Part shown: piece by piece, positions 22,761-49,239 of the stretch | How positions within the stretch are numbered: position 1 is the stretch's first letter | Layout of the letters: the number at the start of each line of letters is the position of its first letter | Program-made: the position numbers and the translations under genes | Notes under the pieces: model-generated | Database searches by the model: none | What the model was told of the DNA's origin: nothing | What the model saw: the letters and a program-made list of their open reading frames with translations, nothing else | DNA from: a virus | Lineage: Duplodnaviria; Caudoviricetes | Length of the DNA: 64,000 nt | Direction: 5' to 3' (one strand) | IMG/VR virus record: IMGVR_UViG_2639763012_000002 | Span: 29,914 to 93,913 of that record

Positions 22761-22818
22761 CAGGGTTGGGTTGGGACCAGCGGCCCGGGGCGTTCCAGCG
22801 CCCGGCGGGCCTCAGGGG

Positions 22819-23927: not shown

Positions 23928-24123
23928 CCTGCGAGGCCAGCCTCAACAGGCACACAACAAACGCAAAGCTTGCCGCAATTTCTATTATGCTTTACGGTGT
24001 TACTCAGTGCCACGCAGTGAACGCGTAAAGACCCCCAGGGCGCCGCAGTGGCGACATCCTGAGGGCCGGCACCAGCGGACTGCCATCCGCTGATCAATGA
24101 GTCCCTGCTGGAAGGACTACGCA

Positions 24124-24876
24124 ATGAGCGTAGCAACGCCGATGCCGCCTGCCCGTGTGCAGGCTGAGCACGCCCGCCCCACCCCGGCCGCCGAGGCTGA
24201 CGGCTGGTGGCCCGCCGGCCATCCGCACCCCGCGTGGTGTGCGCGTGACGAGCATGACGACACCGAGCCGGCCATGTACTCCTGTGTGGGTGACTCCGCC
24301 CGTACGGACCTGTCTCTCCCTCAGCATCAGGCCGTTGCTGGCATGGGCCTGTGGCTCCAGGTTGAGGTGCAGCAGCATGTGGCTGATGAGGCGCCGACGG
24401 TCCACGTGATGGCGGGGGACCTGGCTGAGCAGGAGCGTGTGTTGACAGTGGATGAGGCTGAGGCGCATGCGCGGGATCTGCTGGAGGCGGTGCGCGCGGT
24501 GCGGGCCGAGTCCGGGGCGTGCTTCGGAGCGTCCGTGGCTGCTGTCTCGGTGCCGGCGTGGTCGCCGGGGCCAGGTGTGGCGGTGGAGTGGGGTGTGCGT
24601 TTGCCGGACATTGGTGGTGAGCCGGCTGAGGTGGATGTGCGGGATAACCTGGCGGACGCCTTGGCGGCGTTGGGGCGGTACTCGTCGGTGGTGACGGGCG
24701 TGGCGCTGGTGTGGCGTGCGGTGCAGCTCGGCGAGTGGGTGGTGGCTGCTGAGGCGGGGGGGAGCCTGGCGCCTGCTGTGGCTGACGGGAACTGCTCGGT
24801 GACGCACGGCCGTTCGCAGGGTGAGGGCTACAGCACCCACGGTGAGGCCGTGGCGCAGAATGGGGGCAGGGCGTGA
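24124..24876 (+). CDS. Hypothetical protein (DUF6907-like N-terminus)
   Basis: HPAWC...LTVDEAEAHARDL. Confidence 0.55.
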   Translation: MSVATPMPPARVQAEHARPTPAAEADGWWPAGHPHPAWCARDEHDDTEPAMYSCVGDSARTDLSLPQHQAVAGMGLWLQVEVQQHVADEAPTVHVMAGDLAEQERVLTVDEAEAHARDLLEAVRAVRAESGACFGASVAAVSVPAWSPGPGVAVEWGVRLPDIGGEPAEVDVRDNLADALAALGRYSSVVTGVALVWRAVQLGEWVVAAEAGGSLAPAVADGNCSVTHGRSQGEGYSTHGEAVAQNGGRA

Positions 24877-25598
24877 CCGAGCGGAGTGTGGTTGAGCACG
24901 CACTGACGGTCTACTACGACAGCGCCGAGATGGCGCGGCGGGTCCTCGCACAGCACGACGAGGCTGAGGTCGCCCGCCTGCGGGGCGCGTTGTCGGACGC
25001 GGCGGACCAAGTTGCGGGGTTGGAGTCCGATCTGGGGGGCGAGTCCGCCGAGGTCACCCGGCTGCGGGCCCGCGTTGAGGAGCTGGTGCGGCAGCGGGAT
25101 GACGCGCTGGTGGGGATCGTCACGGCCAAGGCCGATGACGAGTTGGGGCCGGTGACTCCGCTCCGCTGGGGCCTGGGCGATGTGGAGGCGGACGACGACG
25201 GCAACCTGATGATCCTCATGTCCGGGCCCGACCGCGAGCCGTACATGCTGGAGCTGGACGCCGAGCGCGCCGCCGCGCTGCGCGACGAGCTGCCGGTCGC
25301 CGGCCCGGCCAGCGGAGGCTACCCGCCGGCCCTGCCCTGGGCGGCCTGGCTGGACGCCGACGACCTGTCCGCGCTGCTGGACGCCGTATCCGACGTGGTG
25401 GTGCCGCATGCGCCGGCCGGCGAGCGGCTGACCGCGCTGGAGGAGGTGCTGGCCATGTACCGGCTGATCGCCGAGGTCGACCACGCCCAGGCGGTCGTAT
25501 CCGGGCCCGGTCCGGATAGTGACGGGGACGTGTTGGTGGCGGTGCTGGACGCCCACGGCGTCGCCGACATCCCGGTCAGGGGTGACGGCCGTGGCTAA
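24873..25598 (+). CDS. Hypothetical coiled-coil protein
   Basis: GTGA overlap; shares LRWGL.D.E..DD domain with ORF 43617-44558. Confidence 0.65.
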   Translation: MTERSVVEHALTVYYDSAEMARRVLAQHDEAEVARLRGALSDAADQVAGLESDLGGESAEVTRLRARVEELVRQRDDALVGIVTAKADDELGPVTPLRWGLGDVEADDDGNLMILMSGPDREPYMLELDAERAAALRDELPVAGPASGGYPPALPWAAWLDADDLSALLDAVSDVVVPHAPAGERLTALEEVLAMYRLIAEVDHAQAVVSGPGPDSDGDVLVAVLDAHGVADIPVRGDGRG

Positions 25599-25872
25599 CC
25601 GGACGCCGATGAGTGCCCGCGCGACGCTGGAGGTCATGGTCCGCACGGGCCGGGGCCAGATGACGGTCTGGTCTCCGACCGAGGTCAAGCAGGCGCTCGA
25701 CCGCTACCGGGCTGAGGCGCGGGCCGACGTGCTGGTCGAGCAGGCCGACGAGATGGTGGACGCCTGCCCGGCGCACGGGGAGGCCGAGGAGGCGTGGACG
25801 GTGTGCCACTGCGAGGTCGCCGACGAGATGCGGCGCCTCGCCGACCTGATGCGTCCGGGAGGTGACCGGTGA
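25591..25872 (+). CDS. Hypothetical protein
   Basis: Coupled ORF with C/H cluster. Confidence 0.55.
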   Translation: MANRTPMSARATLEVMVRTGRGQMTVWSPTEVKQALDRYRAEARADVLVEQADEMVDACPAHGEAEEAWTVCHCEVADEMRRLADLMRPGGDR

Positions 25873-26939
25873 GCGCGACGACCAAGATCGAATGGACGGA
25901 CGCTACATGGAACCCGGTGACGGGCTACACGAAAGTCTCCCCAGGGTGCGACAACTGCTACGCGGAGACGCTGGCGGAGCGCTTCCGGGGCACCGGCGGC
26001 CACTACTTCGAGCAGGGCTTCGACGTGACATTGCGGCCGGAAAAGCTGCTGGAGCCGCTGCGGTGGCGGAAGCCGCGCCGGGTGTTTGTCAATTCGATGA
26101 GCGATCTCTTCCATGCCTCGGTGCCGGACGAGTATGTGGCGCGGGTGTGGGCGGTGATGGCCCTGGCCCCGCAGCACACATTCCAGGTGCTGACGAAGCG
26201 GCACGGGCGGCTGCGGGCGCTGCTCAGCAGCCCCCAGTTCCGGGAGCTGTGCGAGGCAGAGTGGAACTGGTTGGTGGGCGACGAGTCCACTCCGATGCCG
26301 CAGTACCGGCGTGACGCGTTCATGCGGCAGTGGTGGAGCGAGTTCTCCAGGCCGTTGCGCAACGTCTGGTTGGGCGTCTCTGCGGAGGACCAGGAGCGCG
26401 CCGATCTGCGGGTGCCGGCCCTGTTGGAAACGCCGGCTGCTGTGCGGTTCCTGTCCTGTGAACCACTCCTCGGGCCGATCGACCTCGAAGGGCCGCTGGA
26501 CGGGCCCGGGACCCGCCGGCAGTTGACGTACTGGCTGACGGGACGCCCCGGGGTCGGGGCGCCGAGCCCGACGCTCAGCGGTGTGGACATGCGGCCCCTG
26601 ACGGTGGGGCCGCGCCTTGACTGGGTGATTGCTGGGGGTGAGTCCGGGCGCGGTGCGCGTCCGATGCACCCCGACTGGGCCCGCCGGCTGCGGGACCAGT
26701 GCCAGCAGGCGGGCGTGCCGTTCCTGTTCAAGCAGTGGGGCGAGTACGTGCCGACTGGCTACCTGGTGATCGGTGGCACGGGCAGCGGCACGCTGGCCTT
26801 CAAGGACCCGGTGGACGAGTTGGGCCACCGGGTGGAGGTGCGGCGCGTGGGGAAGGGGCGCGCTGGCCGTGAGTTGGATGGACGGGTCTGGGACGAGTTC
26901 CCGACCCCGAGCCGGGCGCGCGGGGGTGAGGCGTCGTGA
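25869..26939 (+). CDS. DUF5131 (phage Gp37/Gp68, radical-SAM-like) protein
   Basis: TKIEWTDATWNPVTG.TKVSPGCDNCYAE, FVNSMSDLFH, FLSCEPLLG, WVIAGGESG, FKQWG. Confidence 0.92.
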   Translation: MSATTKIEWTDATWNPVTGYTKVSPGCDNCYAETLAERFRGTGGHYFEQGFDVTLRPEKLLEPLRWRKPRRVFVNSMSDLFHASVPDEYVARVWAVMALAPQHTFQVLTKRHGRLRALLSSPQFRELCEAEWNWLVGDESTPMPQYRRDAFMRQWWSEFSRPLRNVWLGVSAEDQERADLRVPALLETPAAVRFLSCEPLLGPIDLEGPLDGPGTRRQLTYWLTGRPGVGAPSPTLSGVDMRPLTVGPRLDWVIAGGESGRGARPMHPDWARRLRDQCQQAGVPFLFKQWGEYVPTGYLVIGGTGSGTLAFKDPVDELGHRVEVRRVGKGRAGRELDGRVWDEFPTPSRARGGEAS

Positions 26940-27655: not shown

Positions 27656-27987
27656 CCACTGGGGACGGCCACCGCGCCGCCCCCACCTCTCCCACGCCAG
27701 GGCCCTGGCCGCGCACACCTGCGTCTGGCCGGGGCCCTGGCCCACCCATGCCTCACACACCCCCAACGCCCTGCCCGGGGCGGCTGGTTGAGCTGGCGCG
27801 GCGCGCTGGCGGGTCGGCGGTTTTCACGCGCTCCTGTGAACCGTCGCGCCGCCCTCGTGCGCCCGTGCCGCCGCTCCCACCCCCCGGGTCGGCCTGACCG
27901 GAGAACTACCGTGCCCCCGCACAAGAACCACCCCACCCACGACCGCCGCCAGGCACAGGCCGGAGCGTCCCGCCAGGCGGTGTCCCG

Positions 27988-29508
27988 GTGAGCATCGAGG
28001 CGCTGAACTACGCCGTGAGAGTCCGGGTAGGCGACCTGACGGCGAAATTTGTTCTCGGCCGTCTGGCCGACCGCGCTGACGAGCGCTACTCCTGCTACCC
28101 CTCGGTCCCGCTGCTGGCCGCCGAGGCCGAGAAATCACCGCGCGTCATCCAGCGGGCGCTGGCCACGCTCCGCACGTTGGGTCTGGTCTCCGACCGTGTG
28201 ACCATGCGCGCCGACGGCAGCCAAGGGGCGAACAGGTACTACCTGCACGGCCCTTGGGACGACTACGGCGGCACTGGGACGCCGTTCCCGGAGATCGTGA
28301 CGCCCAAGGAGGCGCGGGCCGCGCGGTGGGCTCAGGCGCCAGCTGAGGGCGAGTTCCGGGCTGGTACGGCGGCGGCCGTCGCCGAGGACGGGGACGAGGA
28401 GGCCGCCGCCGAAGTGCGGCGGCGCGTGGCCGAGGCGGCGCAGGCCGGACAGGAACGCCTCGAAGCGCGACGCGAGAAGGCAAGGAAAGCGGCCGCGGCA
28501 GCCCACGCGAAATCGCAGGTCAGCGACATTTCCGCAGGTGGGGATGGGGTGACGTCCACGTCGTCCCCCCCGGTGACGTGCACGTCGCCCCCCGGGGTGA
28601 CGCCCACGTCACCCCTAGAACCATCAGTAGTAACCACCAACGAGGAACCCTCTCCCGTCCGTCCGTCTCGTAACGGTGAGGAGTGTGCGCGTGAGGCCGG
28701 AGACGAAACGGAGGGACGGACGGGCAGCGGCTCCCCCAGGGCAGGCGGTGGCACATCCGGCGCCCGGCCGGGGCCGGGTACCCCGGGTGTGCCGACGACC
28801 GAGGCCGAGGGCGAGGACCAGGGGCAGGACGTGCCGGCGGTGCGCGGCGCCGCAGCCCGGCCAGTGCCGTCCGGCGCACCTGCCGGCCGCCGGTCGCCCG
28901 GTGTCGAGTTGCTGCTCGCGATCGGCCAGGAGCGGCCGGAGTATCTGCTGACCGGCCGGACGCTGTCGGATCAGGGCCTGATGGTCACGGGGATGCTGGA
29001 CGCCGGGTGGTCGCCGGAGTTGGTGCGGCAGATCGTGGCGGGCCGGCCGCTGCCGCCGGCGGGTGAGATCCGGGCGAGCGTGGGGGCGATCGTCGCCGCC
29101 CGGCTGCGGGATGCGGTCAGCTCTGGCCCCCCGCCCCCACCCGGGCAACACCCGTTCGGGGCCGGCTCGTTGAACGGGAATGACCACGGCCACAGCCTCG
29201 ACCACGGCGCCGGCAGTTCGGGCAGGCCCGGCAGTCCCGGGCGGCCCTGGGACACGCCCACGCCGACCGCGCCCACCTACGGCCAGCACCTCACCCGGGT
29301 CATGTCGGAATGCGAGGGCCAGGACGGGGCGTGCGGCCGACCCGTGCGCCCCGGCTACGACCTGTGCACCGGCTGCCTGGACCTGCCCTGGTGCGAGTGC
29401 GGCGCGGCCCGCATCGACCCCGGCCGAGGCGAGGAGCGCTGCCCGGACTGCGGGGCGGCGGCCGAGGCCCTGGGCGCCGCGCTCCACGCTCCGCACACGG
29501 CCCGCTGA
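27988..29508 (+). CDS. Phage/plasmid replication initiator-like protein (N-terminal wHTH)
   Basis: AKFVLGRLADRAD...CYPSV..LA....S.R.IQRAL..L...GL...NRY; C-terminal Cys clusters. Confidence 0.75.
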   Translation: MSIEALNYAVRVRVGDLTAKFVLGRLADRADERYSCYPSVPLLAAEAEKSPRVIQRALATLRTLGLVSDRVTMRADGSQGANRYYLHGPWDDYGGTGTPFPEIVTPKEARAARWAQAPAEGEFRAGTAAAVAEDGDEEAAAEVRRRVAEAAQAGQERLEARREKARKAAAAAHAKSQVSDISAGGDGVTSTSSPPVTCTSPPGVTPTSPLEPSVVTTNEEPSPVRPSRNGEECAREAGDETEGRTGSGSPRAGGGTSGARPGPGTPGVPTTEAEGEDQGQDVPAVRGAAARPVPSGAPAGRRSPGVELLLAIGQERPEYLLTGRTLSDQGLMVTGMLDAGWSPELVRQIVAGRPLPPAGEIRASVGAIVAARLRDAVSSGPPPPPGQHPFGAGSLNGNDHGHSLDHGAGSSGRPGSPGRPWDTPTPTAPTYGQHLTRVMSECEGQDGACGRPVRPGYDLCTGCLDLPWCECGAARIDPGRGEERCPDCGAAAEALGAALHAPHTAR

Positions 29509-31472: not shown

Positions 31473-32810
31473 GTGACTACTACCACTGTCCTGTCGCTCA
31501 CTCACCACCCCCTCCAGCGTGCTGGCGCATGGGCTGTCACGCACATCGCGGGCCGGTTCCGGCCCGAGGAGGTGTCAGGGGATGACCTGGAGCTGGTCGT
31601 TGGGCTGATCGTCCGAGACGCGACTCGGGCTGCTGTCGCGCCGAAGGACGATGGCCCGGCTGGCTACGACTGGTGGAAGGTACTCTTCGCGCTCTTCCCG
31701 AACTCCAAGCCGACCCACGCCAAGCGCGGCCGGGACCAGGAGGTGATCCGTAGCAAGGTCGCGGCGCTGTTCGCCCCGGACGGCGTCACCGGCCGGTCGT
31801 GGCCGTGTACGTTCTGCGCCCAGATGACGGGCACGGCGTGGGGGAAGTCGAATCTCCCCCTGTTCGACACGTCCAAGGCGTTGAACAACGTGCCGCCGGG
31901 CGTGCCGGGTTGGCCGATCTGCCGTGGATGCCGGGTCGCGATCTGGACCCTGCCCTACGGGGCGTGGGTGACGGCTGGCTCGGCGACGGTTTTCACCTGC
32001 GAGGACGAGGCAGCCGAGCGCCGGTTCGTCGAGCACAGCGTGGCCCGGTCCCGGCGGATCGTCGACGGCGGGTTCGAGGCGCTGGCGGCGGACGGGGTGG
32101 AGGACGGGCCGTTCGCCCTCGCCCTCCAGCAGCTGCGGGATGTCGGGGGCCGGCAGCACGCCGCCGGCGGGCTGGCCAGTTCCACGTTGTGGCGGTTCAA
32201 GAACGACAACGAGGAGCCCTGGCTGCGGGCGTCCTTCACCCGTCGGGCCGTGCCGCGCTTCCTGGCTCTGGTGCAGGGCAACGCGCCGCTGCGGGAGGCA
32301 TGGGCGCTGCTGGAGGAGGCGTTGGTACAGCGGGACCGGCGCGGCAGGGTCGTGGCCAGCGGTGCGGGAGAGGCGGCGCGGCTGGTGTTCGAGGCCGAGG
32401 ACGGAACGAGCCGGTCGTTGCTGTGGGCGTTGCACGAACTACGAGGCTCTGAGCGCCTGACCTCGGCGCAGCGGCACAACATCGCCCGGCTGGCCGGCGA
32501 GTACGGCCGGCATGTACTGGGGATCGATGATGGCAATCTGGCGCCGGCTGCCGAGGTGTTGGCCACGTGGATCTGGCGTGGCGGTCCCGAGGGGCAGCGG
32601 CAGCAGCGGCGGGCGGAGTACCTGGAGGCCGCGCCCAACCCCTACAAGTTGGGGTTGGTGATGATGCGGGCGAACTCCCGGCTGTTCCTGGCCGGTCTGC
32701 CGGTCAGGGCGACGGTGGAGGACTGGCGTCCGCTGCTCCAGTCTGACGCGCGTGCGTGGGCGCGTCGGCTGCTGTTGGGTGCGGCCGTGGATCGGCAACC
32801 CGTCGGCTGA
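31473..32810 (+). CDS. cas8b: Orphan type I-B Cas8b1/Cst1-like (CXXC-CXXC) protein
   Basis: LTHHPLQRAGAW N-terminus, LFPNS motif, WPCTFC...PLF....LNN.P...ICRGC zinc motifs, about 445 aa; recognised by resemblance to actinobacterial Cas8b1/Cst1. Confidence 0.72.
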   Translation: MTTTTVLSLTHHPLQRAGAWAVTHIAGRFRPEEVSGDDLELVVGLIVRDATRAAVAPKDDGPAGYDWWKVLFALFPNSKPTHAKRGRDQEVIRSKVAALFAPDGVTGRSWPCTFCAQMTGTAWGKSNLPLFDTSKALNNVPPGVPGWPICRGCRVAIWTLPYGAWVTAGSATVFTCEDEAAERRFVEHSVARSRRIVDGGFEALAADGVEDGPFALALQQLRDVGGRQHAAGGLASSTLWRFKNDNEEPWLRASFTRRAVPRFLALVQGNAPLREAWALLEEALVQRDRRGRVVASGAGEAARLVFEAEDGTSRSLLWALHELRGSERLTSAQRHNIARLAGEYGRHVLGIDDGNLAPAAEVLATWIWRGGPEGQRQQRRAEYLEAAPNPYKLGLVMMRANSRLFLAGLPVRATVEDWRPLLQSDARAWARRLLLGAAVDRQPVG

Positions 32811-32847
32811 TCTCGTGGGGTGGTCTGCGTGGCTCCCCCAACCCGCT

Positions 32848-32892
32848 TGTAACGTGCCCCCGTTGACTTTCGTAACGGGGGCACGTTACATT
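32848..32892 (+). promoter_or_regulatory. Promoter TTGACT-18-TACATT covered by a 17-bp inverted repeat operator
   Basis: TGTAACGTGCCCCCGTT...AACGGGGGCACGTTACA. Confidence 0.8.
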
Positions 32893-32929
32893 CGTGGTGT
32901 TGGGCCACCCACTCACCATGGAGGACACC

Positions 32930-33556
32930 ATGACCGACGCCCCCCTCGCCACCGTCACCGTCGCCGACTGGGACGCCGCCGAGGTGTACCTCGCCGAGCA
33001 CACCAGCGACGCCACCTACACCCTCACCGAGCTGACCGCCGCCCACGACGCCGACCTCCACGAGATCCGCCTCGACCCCGAAACCCGCACCATCTGGTGG
33101 GCCTACGACAACGGCCCCGTCCGCGGCAAGGGCTGGACCGTCGACCACCTCACCCCGGCGGCCGCCGCCGAACAGGCCGAGCCCATCATCGACACGACCC
33201 AGGACCGCATGGGCGACCCCGAGGGGTACGCCGGGCAGATCCACCGCCTCGACGACGACCAGGCGCTCCTCGACGAGTACACCGAGATCCTGCGCCTGAC
33301 CCTCCCTGCCGACCCGCAGGCCGCCCGCGCCGAGATCCGCACCCGCCGTGCTCTCGCCGACGCCTTGTGGCAGCGCGCCGACGCCGAGCTGGTCCGCAGC
33401 CTCGCCGGCAGCGACCGGGGCGGCAAGGCCGCCGCCGCACGGACCCTGGGCATCACCCGGATGCAGGTCACCCGTCTCATCAGCGACGACGACAGGCGGC
33501 GGGACGCCCTCACCCAGGCCGTGCGGGAGGCGGAAGCCGACTACCCCGACCGCTGA
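32930..33556 (+). CDS. Acidic N-domain plus C-terminal HTH protein (Acr-Aca fusion-like)
   Basis: GGAGG RBS; GGKAAAARTLGITRMQVTRL HTH. Confidence 0.75.
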   Translation: MTDAPLATVTVADWDAAEVYLAEHTSDATYTLTELTAAHDADLHEIRLDPETRTIWWAYDNGPVRGKGWTVDHLTPAAAAEQAEPIIDTTQDRMGDPEGYAGQIHRLDDDQALLDEYTEILRLTLPADPQAARAEIRTRRALADALWQRADAELVRSLAGSDRGGKAAAARTLGITRMQVTRLISDDDRRRDALTQAVREAEADYPDR

Positions 33557-33585
33557 TCGACCCAGCCGCGCCGCGCTATAGTGCT

Positions 33586-33615
33586 AACCTCATCGCCCCT
33601 ACGAGGGGACCCCTG
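33586..33615 (+). repeat. Solitary type I-B-like CRISPR repeat unit
   Basis: AACCTCATCGCCCCTACGAGGGGACCCCTG; 21 contiguous nt match the recalled Streptomyces-type I-B repeat GTCCTCATCGCCCCTACGAGGGGTCGCAAC; TATAGT -10 box at 33577. Confidence 0.65.
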
Positions 33616-33666
33616 CCAGCCAGCCGTGGCCCATGGTGCGCCACGGCCGACCGACGGACGGCCCTC

Positions 33667-35115
33667 GTGCACTACGGCGACCGCGACGGATACGGCCAGT
33701 ACGGCATCCTGGACGACGACGGCGAGCGGGTGCTGTGCCACGAGTGCGGGCGGCGCTACCGCCAGCTCCCGTACCACATCAATCGGGCGCACGGGATGAC
33801 GGCAGTCGAGTACCGGGCAGCCCACGGCCTGAGCGTGACGCAGCCGTTGGCGTCCGACAGCCTGACGGCGACGCAGCGCGCCAACTCCACCAGGGTCTAC
33901 GCCCAACGCCCCGACATCCGGGCCATGCTCGCCGACGCGCTGAGCCGGGGCTGCTCCGCGGCGGCGTCCCGGGCTGCGCAGGCCGCCGCGCCGGACTCCC
34001 TCGCCCGTGCCGCCGAGCGGCATCGCCGCCGGGTCGCATCTGCTCGCCTGGCGGAGCGCGAGCGGGCCGCGAAGCGGCGCAGGCTCGACGAGGCCGCCCG
34101 GGCTCACGGCTATGCCGATATCGACGCGTGGCTGACGGATCACGCGGATCTCACCGCCAGCCAGATCAGGGAGGTGCTGGGGGTGTCGGGGGCAGCGGCG
34201 CGCGAGTTGCGGCGTGGCGTGGTCAGCGCGCAGCGACCAAGCGCGCTGGCCAAGGAGCGCGCCATAGATAGGGTGATCGATGGCGAACAGCTCAGGGCCG
34301 TGGCCCCAGACGCAGGAGTGGGCCCGGATGCACTGCGGGCGTGGGTAGTCGCCTCCCCCCAGGGCGTGGCAGCAGCCACGGCGGCCGGCTACGCGGACGC
34401 GGGCACATGGCTCACTGAACGCTCCCGTGTGAACGCCGATATGCGCCGGGCTGCTGTAGATGTCGTCAGCGGCGGAGAGTCCAAAGCGGCGGTGGCTCGA
34501 CGGCTCGGCGTCAGCGATGTGGCTGTGGGGAAGTGGGTTCGGGCTGCGGGCCACCGTCAACGCCTGGAGCCGGGGATCGACACAACGCCCCAATCCACTC
34601 CTCCAGCGTCGACTCGGGAGGTCGAGCGGCAGCGCGCGTACGACGAGATCCGCCGCCTGTGGCTCACCGGCATGACGCTCCAGCAGATCGGGCTGCAGGT
34701 CGACCGATCCCCGTCTAGCGTGTCCCACGCCGCGCGCCGCCTCGGCCTGCCCCCGCGCCTCACACGGGCATCGGACGAGTCGATCCAGCGGGTGCGCGAG
34801 CTGTGGCCTGACAGGTCGCTCACCACGGACGAGATCGCGCGCCAGGTGGGCGTCTCGCGTGCGTCGGTCTCCTACATCGCCCACCAACTGGGGCTGCCCC
34901 GCCGTCGCGCAAAAGAGCGACTGCGCGGTGAGCAGCTACGGACGGCCCGCGCCCGGCTGCCCGAGCTATGGATGGACGAGTCCCTGAGTCTGCCGGCCAT
35001 CGCTCAGCGGCTCGGGGTCGGCAGCTCACCGACCCTGTCCAGGTGGGCGCGCGAGATGGGCCTCCCGCCAAGGAGTCGGGGGCGGAAACGGCCGCACCCC
35101 AAGAGTGATCGCTGA
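33667..35115 (+). CDS. ROS/MucR-type zinc finger plus multiple tandem HTH protein
   Basis: VLCHECGRRYRQLPYHINRAHGMTAVEYRAAHGL followed by about 5-6 HTH units (e.g. KAAVARRLGVS, LQQIGLQVDRS, DEIARQVGVS, PAIAQRLGVG). Confidence 0.75.
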   Translation: MHYGDRDGYGQYGILDDDGERVLCHECGRRYRQLPYHINRAHGMTAVEYRAAHGLSVTQPLASDSLTATQRANSTRVYAQRPDIRAMLADALSRGCSAAASRAAQAAAPDSLARAAERHRRRVASARLAERERAAKRRRLDEAARAHGYADIDAWLTDHADLTASQIREVLGVSGAAARELRRGVVSAQRPSALAKERAIDRVIDGEQLRAVAPDAGVGPDALRAWVVASPQGVAAATAAGYADAGTWLTERSRVNADMRRAAVDVVSGGESKAAVARRLGVSDVAVGKWVRAAGHRQRLEPGIDTTPQSTPPASTREVERQRAYDEIRRLWLTGMTLQQIGLQVDRSPSSVSHAARRLGLPPRLTRASDESIQRVRELWPDRSLTTDEIARQVGVSRASVSYIAHQLGLPRRRAKERLRGEQLRTARARLPELWMDESLSLPAIAQRLGVGSSPTLSRWAREMGLPPRSRGRKRPHPKSDR

Positions 35116-35702
35116 CAGACGACGTCGCACTCGTCGACCTCCTGGTCCACTGGATCGAGCAGCCGGAGGACCAGCGGGAGCGGGTGACGCGGATGTCGGA
35201 GCTCGTGGGCGCCCTCCCCACCCGCAGCGCCTCGGAGCGGCTCCTGCGGCGCGTGCGCGACGAGGCGCCCGCTGACGCCGTGGCAGCCTGTGCGGAGGAG
35301 ACGCGCGAGCGGGCGGCCCGCAGGGCGCGGGGGGAGAGGAATCCTCCCGTGCCCGGTCGGGGCCGTCGGGCCGCGGTCGCCCGTGTCATCAGGCAGACCG
35401 ACCGCAACATCCGGAACCTCTACGAGGCGCAGCTGGCCGCCCGGGCGGAGGCGCGCGAGCCGCGCCGCCTCCGTCCGCCGGATGACGCCTACGCGATGCT
35501 GCCCGACGCCCAGGCCGCGGTGGACGAGGTCAGGCGAGCCCGGGACGCCTACTACGCGGCCATCGCCGACGCCCTGCCGCCCCACACCGCGGGGACCCGG
35601 CCCAGCGGGGCCGACGCTGCCCGCTTCGCCGAGGTGCGGTCGGTCACCGGCCTTGATCCCGCGCACCTACGACGCATCCAGCGCACCGTCCACGCCCGTT
35701 GA
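35112..35702 (+). CDS. Hypothetical helical protein (start uncertain: CTG 35112 or GTG 35184)
   Basis: Frame open from the CTGA overlap with the upstream stop; possible C-terminal HTH (VRSVTGLDPAHLRRI). Confidence 0.55.
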   Translation: MTDDVALVDLLVHWIEQPEDQRERVTRMSELVGALPTRSASERLLRRVRDEAPADAVAACAEETRERAARRARGERNPPVPGRGRRAAVARVIRQTDRNIRNLYEAQLAARAEAREPRRLRPPDDAYAMLPDAQAAVDEVRRARDAYYAAIADALPPHTAGTRPSGADAARFAEVRSVTGLDPAHLRRIQRTVHAR

Positions 35703-35777
35703 ATCACACAGAGTGGGTAGCACGGCGGCAGCCCGGCCGTTATCGTGTGGGGCACGCCCGCTGAGCGGGTTGAGACC

Positions 35778-35908
35778 CTTTTCCCCGCATGAGCGGGGGT
35801 GAGCCCACGTACAGCTACTCGCATACGTGTAGCCCCTCGTGGTCCCCGCGCCAGCGGGGGTAACCCAGCTGCGGTCTCTTGTGTCCCCGCGCAAGCGGGG
35901 GTGACCCT
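35778..35908 (+). CRISPR. Degenerate type I-E mini-array, 3 repeats (29 bp), spacers 32 and 12 bp
   Basis: R1 35778-35806 CTTTTCCCCGCATGAGCGGGGGTGAGCCC; R2 35839-35867 GTGGTCCCCGCGCCAGCGGGGGTAACCCA; R3 35880-35908 TGTGTCCCCGCGCAAGCGGGGGTGACCCT. Confidence 0.88.
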
Positions 35909-35922
35909 ATTCTCGCCTCCCT

Positions 35923-36543
35923 GTGATTGCCGTGTATCGAGTCCTGTACGACCTGCCGTCCCTGGGGTACCTGCGTCCGTCCGAGGTGTGGCGGGGCATC
36001 ACCTCCCGCGTGCCGACGGAGCACACGGAAGCGTCTGAGGGCCCGCGACTGCTCTGGCGTCTGGAATCCCCCACAGAACTCCTGGTCCAGTACCCTGTGC
36101 GCCCGGACCCCACATGGCTGCTACCGGGCGCGCGCAGCCGTCCCAAGGCGTTCGCCATGCAGCAGCTCATGGATTCGCTGGCCGCCGGCCAGCGGTGGGA
36201 CTTCGTGTTGGCCGCCAACACGGTCCGCCGATCAACCGGACGAGCACGTGCCCGGCAGGCGCAGGCCCAACGGGTGTCGGCACGAGAGTGGCTCACAGGT
36301 GAGACGGATGTGGATGCTGACAGCGGCACGTCCCGCGCGTACCAGTCCGGATTCCGGGTGCTGGCAATCGCCGAGACCACTCAGCGCCGCGGCGGCCCGC
36401 GCCAGGCGCACTTGGTGCGCATCACAGGTCGCCTGGAGGTTGAGGACACCGAGGCGCTGCAAGCCGCCCTTGAGGAAGGCATTGGCCGAGGGAAGGCCCA
36501 GGGGGCCGGGATGCTATCCCTCTCCCCGCTACCGCGGGGTTGA
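35923..36543 (+). CDS. cas6e: Orphan type I-E Cas6e (Cse3/CasE)-like protein
   Basis: LLWRLE...LLVQ...PDPTWL, GQRWDFVLAANTVR, GRLEVED..AL..AL.EGIGRGKAQGAGML G-rich loop. Confidence 0.9.
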   Translation: MIAVYRVLYDLPSLGYLRPSEVWRGITSRVPTEHTEASEGPRLLWRLESPTELLVQYPVRPDPTWLLPGARSRPKAFAMQQLMDSLAAGQRWDFVLAANTVRRSTGRARARQAQAQRVSAREWLTGETDVDADSGTSRAYQSGFRVLAIAETTQRRGGPRQAHLVRITGRLEVEDTEALQAALEEGIGRGKAQGAGMLSLSPLPRG

Positions 36544-36658
36544 TCCAAGTTCCGGGTTGGCCACCTGTGGTGGCTTGCACTGAATCCCCGCGTGCGCGGG
36601 GATGCCCCGATGAGGATGCCGTGGACACCACGGCCCCTGCATACGCGGGGAGAGATCA
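36519..36658 (+). CRISPR. Second degenerate type I-E mini-array, 3 repeats, spacers 33 and 20 bp; first repeat overlaps cas6e 3' end
   Basis: R4 36519-36547 CCTCTCCCCGCTACCGCGGGGTTGATCCA; R5 36581-36609 TGAATCCCCGCGTGCGCGGGGATGCCCCG; R6 36630-36658 ACGGCCCCTGCATACGCGGGGAGAGATCA. Confidence 0.75.
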
Positions 36659-36687
36659 ACGAGACCCCGGCCACGCCGGGGTCTCGT
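36659..36687 (+). terminator. Hairpin closing the array/cas6e unit
   Basis: ACGAGACCCCGGC-CAC-GCCGGGGTCTCGT. Confidence 0.65.
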
Positions 36688-36722
36688 CGTGTCCCGCTCG
36701 GTCGGCTGGGCACAATGCCGAG

Positions 36723-37439
36723 GTGACGATCAACACCATCCCCGGCCGCACCCTGTCCGCCTCCGTGCTCGCCACGGTCCTCACCCTGACCGCCGTGGCA
36801 TGCACGGAAGCTGACGACGCGGCAGCCGACACCAGTACCAGCGGCAGCCCCAGCGCGCCGGCCGACGACGCCAACCCGCCAGCCGACGACGGTTCCGACG
36901 CGGGCGGCACCGAGGCCGGGGACGCGCTCGCCCTACTCGCCGAGCTGGAGGTCGCTGCCGAGGACCGCACCGGCTACGACCGTGACCTGTTCGACCATTG
37001 GTCCAGCCAGGGCAACAACTGCAACACCCGCGAGGCCGTCCTCGCCCGCGACGGCCAGGACGTCGAGACCGACGACCAGTGCCGCGCCACCGCCGGCACC
37101 TGGGAGTCCGTCTACGACGGAGAGACCTGGACGGACGCCGCCGACCTCGACATCGACCACGTCGTGCCGCTCGCCGAGGCATGGGACTCCGGCGCCGACA
37201 CCTGGACCGACGAAGAGCGGGAGGCGTTCGCCAACGACCTCGACGGGCCGCAGCTGCTGGCCGTCACCAGCAGCGTCAACCGCGCCAAGGGCGACAAAGA
37301 CCCTGCCGAATGGATGCCGCCGCTGGAGTCGTACCACTGCACCTACGCCGCGGACTGGATCCAGGTGAAGCACGACTACGGCCTGGCCGTCGACCAGGAC
37401 GAGCACGACGCCCTGACCGGCATCCTGGAGAGCTGCTGA
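36723..37439 (+). CDS. Secreted lipoprotein HNH endonuclease (DUF1524-like)
   Basis: Lipobox LTAVAC; GYDRDLF.HW, CNTRE.VL.RDG, DIDHVVPLAEAW.SGA, NRAKGDKDPAEW. Confidence 0.9.
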   Translation: MTINTIPGRTLSASVLATVLTLTAVACTEADDAAADTSTSGSPSAPADDANPPADDGSDAGGTEAGDALALLAELEVAAEDRTGYDRDLFDHWSSQGNNCNTREAVLARDGQDVETDDQCRATAGTWESVYDGETWTDAADLDIDHVVPLAEAWDSGADTWTDEEREAFANDLDGPQLLAVTSSVNRAKGDKDPAEWMPPLESYHCTYAADWIQVKHDYGLAVDQDEHDALTGILESC

Positions 37440-37588
37440 ACCCGATAGCCTGACGGGACGGCAGGGCATGCACGCCAAGCCGCCGCCACCCGGGCGTCCA
37501 CAGTGGTGGCCGGCGGCCGAGGCCCACGGGGCCCATGCGAGAGCGCCCCTACACCAGCTCGGTGTGGGGGCGCTCTGCTGAGCGGGGG

Positions 37589-38236
37589 TCAGACATCCAG
37601 GCTGGCGATCCTCACCGCATCCACCAGGTGCGGGGTGGCGGCCAGAGCGAGCTCGGCGCCAGCGGACGGATCGGTTGGAGCCCGGCCCGCAGCCTCCTGG
37701 AGAGCGATACAGGCCGAGGCAGTGTGCTGCACGATCGCGCCAGCCAGCAGCTCGGCCACCGGAACCTCGAACTCGGCAGCAACAGTTCGGACACGTCCGG
37801 GGGTGACCTCCTCGCCCAGGAGCGCATCGATCGCCCCAGCCGGCGCCAGAGCTGCCCCCTGCTGGGCCGTCATCTCCGGCACCGCCGGCCGCGCCACCGG
37901 CTCGGCAGCGGTGTCCGGCTCCATGTCGAGCAGCTGCTCGACCTCAGCGAGTACCGCCCGTTCCCGGGCCGCACGCTGGCTGTCGGCCTCCTCGCTGCGC
38001 GAGATGGCAGCCCATTGGTCGCGGTCCATCTGTGTCGCCCGGTCGAGCCGCGTGGCCGCAGTGATCCCCAACATGTAGATCTCCCGGCCGGAGACGACGA
38101 CCGGCTCACCTCCCGCGCCCGCAACCGTGTTGTAGACCTCGGCTGCGGCATGGCCGATCTCGGCAATGAGTTGGGCGCAGGTGGCGATGAGGTGGGTGTT
38201 CCGGCGGCGGGCGGCCGGCGGGGTGTGCGCGGTCAC
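37589..38236 (-). CDS. Hypothetical protein
   Basis: GTG after GGAG; coding-like. Confidence 0.6.
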   Translation of the reverse strand: MTAHTPPAARRRNTHLIATCAQLIAEIGHAAAEVYNTVAGAGGEPVVVSGREIYMLGITAATRLDRATQMDRDQWAAISRSEEADSQRAARERAVLAEVEQLLDMEPDTAAEPVARPAVPEMTAQQGAALAPAGAIDALLGEEVTPGRVRTVAAEFEVPVAELLAGAIVQHTASACIALQEAAGRAPTDPSAGAELALAATPHLVDAVRIASLDV

Positions 38237-38318
38237 GTCGATCTCCAGGGAGCGGTTGGCGGGTTGATGGTGATGGTCGCTGGTCGGGCCCGGGTGTTGG
38301 GCCCGACCAGGGGCAGGA

Positions 38319-38753
38319 TCACCCGTTCGGGTGTGTGAGGCGGTCGATGAGGCGGGCGCCGGCGGGGGTAATCGCGCTGCTCCAGCGGATACCGGGCCAG
38401 CGCCCCACGATGAGTGGCCATGCCCGGTCGACCAAGCGCTGCCCCCGGTAGGCGGGGGCGACGTATACCCAGCTGACATGCGGTGTCTCGGGCTCAACCG
38501 CGACCGCTCCGGCGAGGGATAGCCCACCTCTGGCCGATGCGGCCGGGAACGGGGTGGGCAGGGCCACGATGGTCTCGGTGCCGGGGCACCGGGCCAGGTA
38601 GGCATGGTCCTGTCCCAGGCCGGTCTCGTCGCAGAACGCCCGACTCAGCTGCTCTACCGCCTCACGGGCAGCCAGGGGCGCGGTGGGGCCGACGATCGGG
38701 TAGGACGCCCAGGGCTGGAGCTGGGCGCCCTCCTCGGGGGTCGGCGGGGTCAT
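38319..38753 (-). CDS. GNAT acetyltransferase-like protein
   Basis: WVYVAPAYRGQRL acetyl-CoA motif A. Confidence 0.7.
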   Translation of the reverse strand: MTPPTPEEGAQLQPWASYPIVGPTAPLAAREAVEQLSRAFCDETGLGQDHAYLARCPGTETIVALPTPFPAASARGGLSLAGAVAVEPETPHVSWVYVAPAYRGQRLVDRAWPLIVGRWPGIRWSSAITPAGARLIDRLTHPNG

Positions 38754-39589
38754 CAGCGGTTCCTCTCCTGATACGACGGCAGTGCGGCGCGTGCGCGGTC
38801 GGCGAGTTGACGGGCGGCGGGCGGGGCGGGGGTGGTGGTGCCGGCGCGCAGCTCAGCGAGGAGCCCAGCGGTGGGGATGATGCGGACGCCGCGCACGGTG
38901 ATACCGCCACCGGCGACCGGAGCGCCGTGCACCACGATGACTGGGGTGACGGTGACGCCGCCGAGGGCGCGGGACACCTCCCGAGCCTCGTACTCGACAG
39001 AGTCCAGCGCGCGCGTCCAGTCCTCGGAGCCCCGGTAGAGGCGGCCCCGGCGGGCGTGCACGGTGCCGGTGCGTGCCGACCAGCGCTTGCTGTCCGGCAT
39101 CCACACCCGGGCGCACGGCGAGATCACCAGGTGGTCGACGTTGGCCCGCCCCCGGGGCAGCGCCCGGTCGTGCAGCACCGTCCAGCCGGCGGGCAGCTGG
39201 CGGAGGATGCCAGCGGTGGCCCGCTCCCCAGCGGCGCCAGCCTCCCAGCGTGCCGCCTGGGCGCGCTGCCGGTCCCCGGCCGCATCCGGCACGCCGAGCG
39301 CGGCGAGGGCCTGGCGGCCGAGGCCGCCGCGCGCGGAACGACGCAGGTGTGCGGCGCGGGCGGCGGCCGAACTCCCGGCGTCGCCGGTGGGGTTCGGGCG
39401 GTGGCGCGGGCCGGGGACGCGGCCGGCCGGGCGCCGGCCACCGGCGGCGGTGCGCCGGCGAACGGGGGAAGCGCCCCGCCGGCCAGGCCGGCGAGGTGGT
39501 CCACCACGGCGGCGGGGCCGCCGGCCGGCCGGGGCGCGGCGGTACAGCCACACCCCGACCGCCACGAGAGCGGCGAGCAGCAGATCCAC
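38753..39589 (-). CDS. NERD nuclease-domain protein
   Basis: GAAGERAT...WTVLHD...ANVDHLVI....V...DSK.W. Confidence 0.88.
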   Translation of the reverse strand: MDLLLAALVAVGVWLYRRAPAGRRPRRRGGPPRRPGRRGASPVRRRTAAGGRRPAGRVPGPRHRPNPTGDAGSSAAARAAHLRRSARGGLGRQALAALGVPDAAGDRQRAQAARWEAGAAGERATAGILRQLPAGWTVLHDRALPRGRANVDHLVISPCARVWMPDSKRWSARTGTVHARRGRLYRGSEDWTRALDSVEYEAREVSRALGGVTVTPVIVVHGAPVAGGGITVRGVRIIPTAGLLAELRAGTTTPAPPAARQLADRARAALPSYQERNR

Positions 39590-45746: not shown

Positions 45747-46060
45747 GAGTGGTCCTCACGTAGTAGCGGGGGCGGTGCGACGGACGGGCCGGAAGCGGCG
45801 GGCGAGGGCGCGTAGCCGGCGGCGCGTGCCGTCACCGCCACCGGAGTTCCACCAGTTCCACGCCGCCCAGGCCGCGCCCGCCGTGTTGATCGCAGCACCG
45901 GCCCGGCTGTCGACGGAGATCGATCCCGCGAGTAGCAGGACGTGTGCCAGGACCATCCACGCGAAGAACGCGCGCGGCCGGATGTGTCCACACCTGAGGG
46001 CGAGGGATGCGCATACAAACACGCCGAGGCTGGCACTGGCAGAAACTTCCCACAACGCCA

Positions 46061-46735
46061 TCAGAACGTCCCGTAGTTGACCTGCCAGGTCGGCAGTCCC
46101 AGGCGCCGCCACAGGGCGACGACGCGGTCGCGGTCGTCCAGCACGAGCCGCACGTTGTAGCGGCCCCTCACCTGGGCGTCGAACAGCTCGGCTTTCAGGA
46201 TGTCGTCGCGGCGGTAGTCGTCGGCCGGCCGCATCCACAACTCGTCGTGCGGCACTCCGTTGCTGTACAGCCATGCCTCGGTCTCGGTCCGCCAGGTGTC
46301 GGGCCGGCCGGAGAGCAGCACGATGCCGGCGCCATAGGTATGCCGCCATGCCACCAGCGTGTCGCGCACCGGGTGGTTGAGGCGGTCGGTGTCGCAGCGG
46401 GCGAACTCGAAGGGGGCGCGGTCGTGGTGAAGGGCGAGGGTGCCGTCGATGTCGCAGAGCACGACCGGCGGCAGGGATGGGTCGGGCGTGTAGGAACGCG
46501 TAGGGAAATGTATGAAGTTGCCCCGGCCATGCTGTTTGTCGACGAGCCCCTGAGTGACGAGCACGGCAAGAGCCTGGCGCAGGGTCGGGACTGAGACCCC
46601 GTAGTGGCTAGCGAGGCGGGCCTCGGACGGCAGGATCTGACCGTGAGCCAGGCTGCCGCCCATGATCTGCTCGCGGACGTCGGCGGCTATGCGCTGGTAG
46701 TGCGGCTGGCGACGTTCGGGGGGCGGTTCGAGCAC
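46061..46735 (-). CDS. GntR wHTH fused to T4 PNKP-type HAD 3'-phosphatase
   Basis: YQRIAADVR...LPSEARLASHYGVSVPTLRQAL...GRGNF followed by DIDGTLA, LSGR, MRP..D.R.D...K, LDDR. Confidence 0.85.
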   Translation of the reverse strand: MLEPPPERRQPHYQRIAADVREQIMGGSLAHGQILPSEARLASHYGVSVPTLRQALAVLVTQGLVDKQHGRGNFIHFPTRSYTPDPSLPPVVLCDIDGTLALHHDRAPFEFARCDTDRLNHPVRDTLVAWRHTYGAGIVLLSGRPDTWRTETEAWLYSNGVPHDELWMRPADDYRRDDILKAELFDAQVRGRYNVRLVLDDRDRVVALWRRLGLPTWQVNYGTF

Positions 46736-46751
46736 AGGGCTTCCTCTTCGT

Positions 46752-47030
46752 CTATCGGCGCGGCCTGCGGCGGCGCACGGTCTTACGGTCGTCTTGGGTG
46801 AGGCCGCCCCAGACGGCGGTGCCGGCCTCGGTGGGGTGGTCCAGTGCCCAGTCGCGGCATGCCTGCCGGACGGGGCAGGTGGCACAGATGGCGCATGCGT
46901 CTCGCTGTTGGGCTGGGGTGCCGCCGTCGTGGATGCGGCTGCCAGTACAGGGCGGGGGCTCCGGCAGCCCGCGGAGGAATGGGGGTACGCCTCGGAGCCA
47001 TTCGGCGGGCCAGGCAGGGTCAGGGCTCAT
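46752..47030 (-). CDS. WhiB-family (Wbl) Fe-S transcription factor
   Basis: C...C..CPVRQAC..WA...AVWGGLT plus basic tail. Confidence 0.85.
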   Translation of the reverse strand: MSPDPAWPAEWLRGVPPFLRGLPEPPPCTGSRIHDGGTPAQQRDACAICATCPVRQACRDWALDHPTEAGTAVWGGLTQDDRKTVRRRRPRR

Positions 47031-47398
47031 GTGCGCCTCCGGCGGCGGTAGTCGGTGAGGGACACCACGCCGGCCGGCAGCCCGGTGGCGCTACGGCGGC
47101 GAGCCTGCGGCGCGGGACGGGGCTGTTCGGCGTGCGTGTCGGCCCGTCCGCCGGGCCGCTGTGGCTGGTTGGCCGCGCACGTCGCGGCGTGCGGGACGCA
47201 CACGCGTTCCCACGGCATCGCCGGCCGCTCCGCAGTGATCCGGCGGGAGCGCAGGCGTCCGGTCGCGTCCCGGTGCACGGCGGTGTTGCCGTACTGAGGG
47301 TCCGGGGTCGGGTCGATGAGCAGCATGCGGCCGGCCTCGGTCGTCGTGACGGCGACCGGGGCCAGGCAGCGGCGGCACAGCGGGTGTCGGGCGGGCAT
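47027..47398 (-). CDS. Hypothetical zinc-binding protein
   Basis: CRRC...IDPTPD..GN...PHAATC. Confidence 0.6.
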   Translation of the reverse strand: MPARHPLCRRCLAPVAVTTTEAGRMLLIDPTPDPQYGNTAVHRDATGRLRSRRITAERPAMPWERVCVPHAATCAANQPQRPGGRADTHAEQPRPAPQARRRSATGLPAGVVSLTDYRRRRRT

Positions 47399-47767
47399 GG
47401 CGTCAGGCGTCGTCCTTGCCGAACGCCGGCAGGCCGGGAGTGGTGGGCCCGACGTCCTCGACCCTGATCTGGCGGGGGCGCCCAGCAGCGTCTACGTCGG
47501 CGGGGTGGCAGGCCGCGTAGACCTGCCCGGGGTGGATGGTGTGCATCAAAAGGGCTCCTGTCAGTCGTCGACAAGGACGATCAGTGCGTGGCCGAGCCAG
47601 GTGACGACGGCGACGATCAGGCCGACGATGGCGGCGAGTTGACTGTCTGAGGTGAGGGCGTAGGTGCCGCCGCCGGAGAGGGCGCCGAGGAGCAGGCCGA
47701 GGAGGAAGAGAGGCATGTGAGGGTCCGTTCGTTCAGGGGTGGTTGAGGCGGCCGCGGACCCACTTGG

Positions 47768-48158
47768 TCACGGTTGCTCTCCCTGCTGGCCGGTGAATGC
47801 GTTGGTGTCGATGAGGTGTTGGATACGGCCGGTGAAGCGCTGGCCGAACTCGGGGCCCATGCGGTGGGCGAGGGCGAGGAGTTCGGTGACGAGCGCGGCG
47901 GCGCCGTCCTCATTCATCAGGTAGAGGTTCCTGGCGCGATCGCTGCTGCGGTTGATGCGCCCTTCGAGGAGCATGGCCAGGGCGGGGGTACCGTCGGCGG
48001 TCTCGACCTGCGAGACGGTGGAGGCATCGAGGAGGACAGCGTTGGTGGTGTCGACGATCACGGCGTTGCGGTCGTGGGGCCCGCCGGGGCCAGCGATGTC
48101 GCCGCCGCTCCGGCGGGGGTCTCCGCTGACGCGGCGGCCGTTGGGCTTACGGGGCATG
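47768..48158 (-). CDS. Hypothetical protein
   Basis: AGGAG RBS before MPRKPNG; coordinates approximate. Confidence 0.5.
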
Positions 48159-48794
48159 GCTCTCCTATGAGTGAGGGCGGGCTGTCTGGGCAGTTGATGG
48201 TGCGGCAGCCCTGGTCGCTGTAGCAGCCGTGGGCGCACCGAGGCCGGTTGTACTCGGGATCGGACTCGCGGTGTGGGGCTCGTCTCGCCGGATGTGTGGC
48301 GCGCTTGTGCCAGCCGTCCGGCTCGTCCTGGGTGTTGGGGTCCCAGGCGGTGTAGGCGGCCTCGACGGCGGCCGGGTCGCGCGGGTAGCACCAGCCGTGG
48401 TCGTAGCTGGTCAGCCCCTCGGAGCCGTGTGGTGTGGCGATGAGGCGGATGTTGTAGCCGTACCAGAGCCACAGGTATCGGTGGCTGGCATCGGCACCGA
48501 GGACATGGCCCTGCCAGTGCTCGTCGTAGGGCAGGCGGGCAGGCGTGCTCATCGTCGCGCTCCGGGCGGGGTGCGGTTTTCGCGGATGGCGTCGCCGAGG
48601 TAGACAAGCGCTGCGGCCATCGCGAGCTGGGCACGGGCCTGGACGATGCCTGTCAGCTCTTTCCGGTTGACAGAAACGCCGTCGAGCTTGTGGATCTCGC
48701 TGCTTGCAGAGTTGAAATGGTTGATCGCGCCTTCTCGTGCGCCGAGGGCATCGCTGTGGCTCATATCTGACTCCGGGGTGGCTCAGGCCGCGTC

Positions 48795-49239
48795 GCGGCG
48801 GTTGGTGTGGGCGAGGCAGGGGGTCATCACAATGGCGAATCGTGGGTGTGACAGGAGCACGGCTCTGGCCAGGAACCGCCGGCGTCCCGGAGGATCGACT
48901 CCAGGTCTGATATGTGCGTCGGGACGTCTTGCTGTGACGCGATGGTGTCCATGTCCTGTGTCCAGTCCACGAGCGCAGCCACCGCGCTGGCCGCATCGGT
49001 CGCGGCCTGCTGCGTGGGGAAACAGGCGAGGGAGTATCCGTTGCTCCGGTGCGCCAGGTACCAGCGGTCGCTCGCCTCATCGCAGAATCCGGGCGGCAGC
49101 TCGTAGACGAGCAGACCGGGGATCGGCTCTGCCGCGTCTACTCCTACGGTGCCGGCGGTGGTGTCGATGTGGTGGTGCGGCATGTGTGCTCCCGGTCGAT
49201 CAGGCCGCGGCGGGGCGGCGGTTGGTGTGGGCGAGGCAG
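48795..49239. repeat. 25-bp direct repeat pair (48795-48819 and 49215-49239)
   Basis: GCGGCGGTTGGTGTGGGCGAGGCAG twice, each preceded by TCAGGCCGCG. Confidence 0.8.
48827..49183 (-). CDS. Hypothetical protein flanked by direct repeats
   Basis: GGGAG RBS. Confidence 0.55.
   Translation of the reverse strand: MPHHHIDTTAGTVGVDAAEPIPGLLVYELPPGFCDEASDRWYLAHRSNGYSLACFPTQQAATDAASAVAALVDWTQDMDTIASQQDVPTHISDLESILRDAGGSWPEPCSCHTHDSPL

Follow-up and report, generated by a model that had tools for sequence, protein, structure and literature searches.

What would a prophage do with a CRISPR-processing protein that lacks its catalytic histidine? The question is raised by a cas6e-like gene in a 64,000-nucleotide stretch of viral DNA (IMG/VR record IMGVR_UViG_2639763012_000002, positions 29,914 to 93,913; the window), which belongs to a Streptomyces-like genome and offers a prophage-like setting. 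The gene is part of a stand-alone, prophage-borne module: it encodes a His-less, Cas6e-derived protein and is surrounded by co-oriented hairpins that resemble type I-E CRISPR repeats (coordinates in Table 1). From these features we predict, with a probability of roughly 0.45, that the protein binds repeat hairpins with little or no cleavage and, together with repeat-mimic RNAs, counteracts type I-E CRISPR.

The open reading frame (ORF) at 35923-36543 on the plus strand has a stop-free translation of 206 residues, which includes RPSEVWRGITSRV. The gene likely starts at the GTG at 35932, giving 203 residues, because the homologues begin MYRVLY. In the two related loci from other genomes, L005 and L006, an ATG stands at the position matching this start, in L006 with GAGGAG just upstream. 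One source calls a shorter gene (P0002, 177 residues, start at 36010), with which strand 1 and helix 1 would be lost. The protein matches the Pfam family PF08798 (Cas6e/Cse3/CasE) over profile positions 29-223 of 223 with 89 bits (E 6.9e-25; cut-off 25) and is the sole match to this family in its own genome. The NCBIfam equivalog TIGR01907 scores 41.3 bits, under the curated cut-off of 45.2, and matches residues 79-203 only. In an AlphaFold2 model made with a 99-row alignment (predicted local distance difference test 90.8; predicted template-modelling score 0.87), Trp20 lies within helix 16-24. The best Foldseek matches among PDB structures are to RNA-bound Thermus thermophilus Cse3 (2y9h, 2y8w, 3qrq; E ~4e-12, template-modelling (TM) score up to 0.73), and the next-best fold is Escherichia coli CasE. 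The window protein is a Cas6e/Cse3 homologue, with a modelled two-domain ferredoxin-like fold and a C-terminal G-rich loop.

The initial annotation had read a His-to-Trp and a Tyr-to-Ser change in the first helix, and had the G-rich loop retained. A phmmer search against PDB chains pairs P19-S20-E21-V22-W23-R24 of the window protein (206-residue numbering) with P22-Y23-E24-M25-H26-R27 of T. thermophilus Cse3 (1wj9/2y8w; E 4e-10), so that His26 is replaced by Trp and Arg27 is kept; in the 203-residue numbering used from here on, W23 and R24 are Trp20 and Arg21. We also aligned 99 sequences with MAFFT, namely the seven members of the His-less clade described below and 92 canonical Cas6e proteins, the latter drawn from the best 150 representatives, with short, partial and multi-stretch matches left out. 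The catalytic column contains His in 91 of the 92 canonical sequences and Arg in one; in the clade it contains Trp (five) or Gln (two) and no His (0/7). Both alignments thus place Trp, and neither places a His, at the catalytic site of the window protein, which bears out the proposed His-to-Trp change. The Tyr-to-Ser change fares less well: phmmer does align Ser with Tyr23, but this column is not conserved among the 92 canonical proteins (Gln in 44, Tyr in 14, His in 10), and the change carries no weight.

The catalytic His is otherwise close to universal. It is present in 24/24 canonical Cas6e ORFs that could be extracted from 28 loci in genomes of the same genus, and in 115 of 116 canonical proteins overall. 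No position of the seven-member clade alignment holds an invariant His. The retention of the G-rich loop is confirmed (G183, G185, K188, G191 and G193 are all present), and R43, W120, G140 and G166 are also kept in the clade. At positions at least 75% conserved in canonical Cas6e, the clade differs by S54 to Y, R92 to variable residues, P97 to T or A, Y190 to Q, H, A or K, and L194 to M. The structural comparison supports the match to Cse3 at the level of the fold; the residue equivalence with the Cse3 active site comes from the sequence alignments, not from structural superposition. In E. coli Cas6e, His20 is reported to be essential for cleavage (PMC5965381), and catalysis by the T. thermophilus enzyme is attributed to His, Tyr and Lys (PMC3902920).

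The His-less type is rare. A word-indexed search of 5.8 billion proteins returned seven proteins, the window's own among them. An exhaustive HMMER search returned 387 proteins at E <= 0.001, of which just four representatives reached E <= 1e-30, followed by a drop to ~1e-10 for canonical Cas6e. A protein of 1100 residues with seven matching stretches (P0009) was rejected as a relative, being a repetitive unrelated protein. All seven clade ORFs are intact, with 47-70% identity. In an IQ-TREE phylogeny of 123 rows, obtained from a quick search (the careful search was incomplete), the seven are monophyletic with a Shimodaira-Hasegawa-like approximate likelihood-ratio support of 100, and their stem, at 1.47 changes per site, is the longest internal branch. 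The monophyly indicates one shared origin of the His loss. The ratio of non-synonymous to synonymous substitution rates (dN/dS; NG86, Nei-Gojobori), calculated pairwise among the three genes for which we have DNA, is 0.29-0.45; these values are rough because dS, at 1.2-1.7, is near saturation. The His-less clade is under purifying selection, and is probably functional rather than decaying.

Among 401 genomes sampled from the genus, 78 had some Cas6e-like match, and the His-less type was confined to the window's own genome and G304, the genome that contains L005; canonical Cas6e is found in ~19% of the sampled genus genomes (77/400). A family-wide sample of 401 genomes added only G515. We equate G515, and also G401, with the genome of L006 from the identical contig number and coordinates, so neither sample yielded a new carrier. 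Scanning the genome collection for relatives gave only L005 and L006, and a scan of JGI metagenomes confirmed no relative.

The repeat hairpins, which the initial annotation did not mention, are the strongest clue to the RNA partner of the window protein. We scored them with a covariance model of 12 canonical I-E repeats from seven other genomes, taken from arrays adjoining canonical cas6e (eight other genomes were examined); the model stem shows C-G to U-A covariation. Upstream of the gene, the 29-nt units R1, R2 and R3, all with the stem CCCCGC/GCGGGG, are detected at full length on the gene's strand. R2 is similar to canonical repeats, for example that of locus L040, and the 3' flank of R1, GTGAGCCC, agrees at 7/8 positions with that of the canonical L045 repeat. 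By these matches, R1-R3 are good mimics of Streptomyces I-E repeats in their flanks as well as their stems; the downstream units are mainly hairpins, and R6 was not detected by the model at E <= 10. Six of the seven hairpin-motif matches in the window fall within 35783-36650 (868 bp), with a genome background of 34 per Mb, and the observed count was never reached in shuffled sequence; the remaining match is at 48103. The repeats around the gene are mutually 76-92% alike and the spacers measure 32, 12, 33 and 20 nt, which is short of the near-identical repeats and uniform spacers of a bona fide array. A search of Rfam over 35500-36900 gave no family at E <= 1, and scans for consensus promoters and terminators over 35000-37800 gave none. 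The GC-rich hairpin at 36661-36685, which differs in sequence from the repeats, is a possible transcript end, judging by its fold.

The upstream repeats recur in the related loci. L005 has five repeat units upstream of its gene (model E 1e-8, 7e-6, 0.004, 0.03 and 1.7), and L006 has one clear unit (E 4e-4) plus a second, degenerate unit. Every unit shares the orientation of its gene, and the units end 48 nt (L005) and 73 nt (L006) before the ATG. Repeats directly upstream of the start codon are thus seen in 3/3 loci, despite differing surroundings. The window owes its prophage-like character to matches to phage families, among them minor tail, replication initiator, exonuclease, Gp3-like and polynucleotide kinase (Table 1). 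L005 is likewise prophage-like, its module being next to an amidase, an H-type lectin protein and a tail-like gene. An ORF-level blastp comparison of the three loci, which superseded a tblastx comparison flooded with low-score matches, identified one other shared gene, a minor-tail-like ORF (L005 9371-10711 versus window 1-885, 40% identity). Given upstream repeats common to the three loci and no shared neighbours save this distant ORF, we take the conserved unit to be an I-E-like mini-array plus a His-less cas6e. The gene order of a canonical I-E locus is cas5e-cas6e-cas1, and the layout of the three His-less loci, with repeats directly upstream, is unlike it.

Do the carriers themselves have a type I-E system with which the module could interact? 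The window's own genome is 100% complete by marker genes and contains no Cas7e (PF09344) and no Cse1 (PF09481); cse2 and I-E-type cas2 were not searched. The wording of the initial annotation, in which a block of host crRNA (CRISPR RNA) maturation was one possibility, does not suit this host, which has no type I-E Cascade; any target would have to sit in other hosts. The His-less protein is also the sole Cas6e in G304 and in the L006 genome. The window's own genome does have a different type I CRISPR-Cas locus on contig C23 (~391500-400300; L047 3530-12260), composed of a family-less 580-residue protein, a protein weakly similar to Cas7/DevR, Cas5, Cas3, and a Cas1 that is extended at its N-terminus, with arrays of ~65-nt period on both sides. 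It also has an orphan type I-E array on contig C15 (38951-39087 plus flanks; L046 ~8630-9093, minus strand), flanked by genes for a GH12 protein and a UDP-glucose dehydrogenase; it starts with three good repeats (model E 2e-7 to 3e-6), spaced by 31-32 nt, and continues with degenerate ones.

How might such a module work? Canonical Cas6e is reported to hold its product at sub-nanomolar to nanomolar affinity and to join Cascade (PMC3727216). We propose that the window protein would bind I-E repeat hairpins, those of the module as well as those in Streptomyces I-E arrays, and that the bound hairpins would undergo little or no cleavage. Protein and repeat-mimic RNAs together would disturb type I-E immunity in susceptible hosts, by either of two routes or by both. 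In the first, the repeats of the pre-crRNA would be occupied and maturation would fail; in the second, Cascade subunits would be fed aberrant RNA-protein seeds carrying the 12- and 20-nt 'spacers'. The module would then be an anti-CRISPR (Acr) that arose by co-option of a cas gene and is linked to RNAs of the Racr/Cracr kind. The fully composite version, in which a dead Cas6e clamps phage and host I-E hairpins to block pre-crRNA maturation while Cas7 and Cas5 nucleate on the 12- and 20-nt 'spacer' RNAs into dead complexes, is more tentative and rather unlikely. In that version, since the gene lies between repeats, the active Cas6e of a host would cut the transcript there, which could make production of the decoy depend on the very system that it blocks.

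Several observations weigh against an anti-CRISPR function of this kind. Some concern the protein: Arg21, beside Trp20, is retained in 6/7 clade members, and S. solfataricus has Cas6 enzymes that lack the His and still cut (PMC5965381, PMC3902920). Others concern its phage association. The protein has no match among the PHROG families; the phage collection yielded no relative, either by megablast of 34000-39000 or by tblastn of the protein, and the IMG/VR scan confirmed none. No acr or aca genes were recognised among the neighbours by family searches, although no dedicated acr library was searched. The surroundings of L006, with Dak, MmyB-like and type III polyketide synthase genes, look chromosomal. 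None of the three carrier genomes (0/3) has Cas7e, leaving no cognate target beside the module; this is weak evidence either way, because ~19% of the genus sample has canonical Cas6e.

The remaining difficulties lie in the RNAs. The downstream hairpins are weak or undetected with the canonical model, and none is found in L005 or L006. The spacer-like sequences gave self matches only in their own genome and the examined loci; the best non-self match in the own genome, 17 nt of spacer 3 exact at contig C19 (E 0.008), was judged to be chance. Searching the phage collection with both array regions gave weak repeat-level matches and no spacer target. Spacer 1 had a single 18-nt chance match among plasmids and no exact 22-mer in viral contigs. 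Compared with eight canonical I-E loci (159,208 bases, cas promoters included), the spacer-like parts had no match longer than 13 nt.

The module can be compared with four known systems. With canonical Cas6e (T. thermophilus TTHB192, PDB 2y8w and 3qrq; E. coli CasE, 4dzd), the window protein shares the Pfam family, the two-domain fold, the G-rich loop and the proximity of its gene to I-E-type repeats; it differs in having Trp or Gln (across the clade) for the catalytic His, a TIGR01907 score below the cut-off, no cas operon and a long separate branch. Viral orphan cas genes are known to act as anti-CRISPRs: AcrIB3 is a Cas5 homologue, AcrIB4 a Cas8b homologue and AcrVIA2 a Cas3 homologue (Katz et al., bioRxiv 10.1101/2023.06.24.545427). 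The window gene is likewise a lone Cas homologue on a mobile element, and the logic proposed for it, dominant-negative interference with the complex or the crRNA supply, is also alike. The main text of Katz et al., as available to us, discusses no Cas6 or Cas6e inhibitor, and for the window protein the anti-CRISPR role is a prediction. According to the same text, their screen dropped genes near predicted arrays, and would have excluded the window module.

On the RNA side, Racr repeat mimics, which are solitary repeat units and include two of type I-E, inhibit CRISPR (PMC10651486), and prophage I-E Cracr arrays have degenerate repeats and short spacers (bioRxiv 10.1101/2024.10.29.618823); the I-E examples were validated in Pseudomonas and Salmonella systems (same two sources). 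The window has the same ingredients, CRISPR-type repeat mimics in a prophage, outside a cas locus, with degenerate repeats and shortened spacer-like parts. Racr and Cracr RNAs are described as relying on the Cas6 and Cascade of the host, whereas the module supplies a His-less Cas6e gene alongside the window RNAs. The spacer-like part of Cracr is described as partially matching a cas or toxin promoter; for the window spacers we found no match to cas promoters in the eight canonical I-E loci. The fourth system is a type III-associated Cas6-2 of T. thermophilus HB27, which lowers I-B interference because it competes against the cognate Cas6 when Cascade is assembled (PMC12102369). The mechanism that we propose is of this kind, but Cas6-2 is host-encoded, catalytically active and from another CRISPR system, and unlike the window protein it is neither mobile nor His-less. 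Our full-text literature search found no phage or prophage His-less Cas6e and no Cas6-homologue anti-CRISPR, outside the supplementary tables S3 (Katz et al.) and S2 (the Cracr study), where a prior listing is possible.

If the protein does bind I-E repeats without cutting them, a phage would here have turned a Cas6 into an inhibitor that is physically linked to repeat-mimic RNAs. It would join two counter-defence routes, Acr proteins derived from cas genes and Racr/Cracr RNAs. A natural, high-affinity, non-cleaving binder of I-E hairpins would serve as an RNA-tagging tool, and as a means of switching off type I-E in Streptomyces, where this system affects genetic manipulation. Modules of this type can be missed when a screen for viral orphan cas genes leaves out array-adjacent genes.

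R1, spacer 1 and R2 stand in canonical I-E geometry, with 29-nt repeats, a 32-nt spacer and the L045-like flank of R1. This would suit a protein that still processes crRNA, through an atypical active site without His, and that matures a phage mini-array so that the crRNA from spacer 1 can load onto the I-E Cascade of a host. Like other viral mini-arrays, it would then act against competitors, whether phages or plasmids; the active His-less enzymes of S. solfataricus provide a precedent. We consider this unlikely, given the near-universal His of canonical Cas6e and its reported essentiality in E. coli, the imperfect likeness of the repeats and the two 'spacers' of only 12 and 20 nt. Moreover, no protospacer was found in the own genome or in the phage, plasmid and viral collections, there is no Cas7e to load in the three carrier genomes, and any I-E host already has its own Cas6e.

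Still less likely, in our view, is a role outside the CRISPR conflict, as an RNA-binding regulator that binds the hairpins flanking its own gene, and perhaps other transcripts, to control the stability or translation of prophage mRNA. The position of the window hairpins on both sides of the gene, with one over the stop codon, would suit such a protein, and loss of catalysis with a kept fold is compatible with a pure binder. The downstream hairpins are not seen in the two related loci, however, and the single other hairpin-motif match in the window leaves no visible regulon; a regulatory loop acting on itself alone gives no output. The upstream repeats also keep canonical flanks besides the stem, which a private binding site would not need.

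Least likely, in our view, is that the module is the decaying, now functionless remnant of a type I-E locus (cas6e with pieces of its array) that mobile DNA captured or in which it became stranded: the second orphan, degenerate I-E array among housekeeping genes on C15, the degenerate repeats of the module, the GC content of the gene at third codon positions (0.77, under most neighbouring ORFs tabulated) and the rarity of the family (seven proteins in the 5.8-billion search, three genomes among the two samples of 401) would fit decay, but seven intact ORFs with selective constraint and conserved structural and RNA-binding residues, an upstream-repeat layout maintained in 3/3 loci with differing surroundings and not in canonical I-E order, and a His loss of single shared origin all argue against it.

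A run of repeat hairpins was also observed in a phage. Streptomyces phage ZL12 (GQ919031, ~83823-83960; L037 2441-2578) has three intergenic I-E-like repeat hairpins (E 9e-4, 3.5e-4 and 0.42), followed by a terminator-like hairpin; there is no cas6e nearby, and the run is unannotated in the record. From its sequence it looks like a phage mini-array or a solitary-repeat locus.

Table 1. Positions of the cas6e-like gene, the surrounding repeats and spacer-like sequences, and other assigned genes in the 64-kb window.
Feature	Position	Strand	Remarks
cas6e-like gene	35932-36543	+	203 residues; Trp20 where the catalytic His is expected; start likely
Alternative upstream GTG of cas6e-like gene	35923	+	
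Repeat R1, type I-E-like	35778-35806	+	stem CCCCGC/GCGGGG, 3' flank GTGAGCCC; 26.2 bits, E 1.6e-4, full length
Spacer-like sequence 1	35807-35838	+	32 nt, the canonical I-E spacer length
Repeat R2 (GTGGT-CCCCGCGCCAGCGGGG-GTAACCCA)	35839-35867	+	28.0 bits, E 5e-5
Spacer-like sequence 2	35868-35879	+	12 nt only; R2-R3 start-to-start 41
Repeat R3	35880-35908	+	28.8 bits, E 3e-5; ends 23 nt before start codon
Repeat-like hairpin R4	36519-36547	+	overlaps last codons and stop; weak, 16.7 bits, E 0.07
Spacer-like sequence 3	36548-36580	+	33 nt
Repeat-like hairpin R5	36581-36609	+	21.6 bits, E 0.003
Spacer-like sequence 4	36610-36629	+	20 nt
Degenerate hairpin R6	36630-36658	+	CCCTGC/GCGGGG, one G-U pair; hairpin only
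GC-rich hairpin, different sequence (GAGACCCCGGC-CAC-GCCGGGGTCTC)	36661-36685	+	from fold; no T-run
Minor tail protein	1-885		family match
DUF2637 with MerR	17382-19085		family match
Replication initiator	27898-29508		family match
Polynucleotide kinase	46061-47026		family match
Gp3-like	58875-60188		family match
Exonuclease	60044-60928		family match

The immediate neighbours of the module are unrelated to cas genes. The ORF at 35109-35702 has no informative family. Directly after the module, the ORF at 36723-37439 (plus strand) encodes a GmrSD_C (DUF1524-type nuclease) domain with a signal-peptide or lipoprotein-like N-terminus; its coding signal begins only at ~36723, so that 36544-36722 is intergenic. 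A functional link to this gene was rejected, as neither L005 nor L006 conserves it. The 787-residue ORF at 32752-35115 (plus strand), two genes upstream of the module, has several helix-turn-helix domains after a ROS/MucR domain at residues 325-377. Near the prophage tail gene, the ORF at 4226-5362 (plus strand) encodes a glycosyltransferase that matches PF20706 (GT4 in conflict systems) and phrog_26352. At 6000-26000 and 46000-50000, the GC skew is strongly positive (up to +0.30) and the AT skew negative, unlike the rest of the window.

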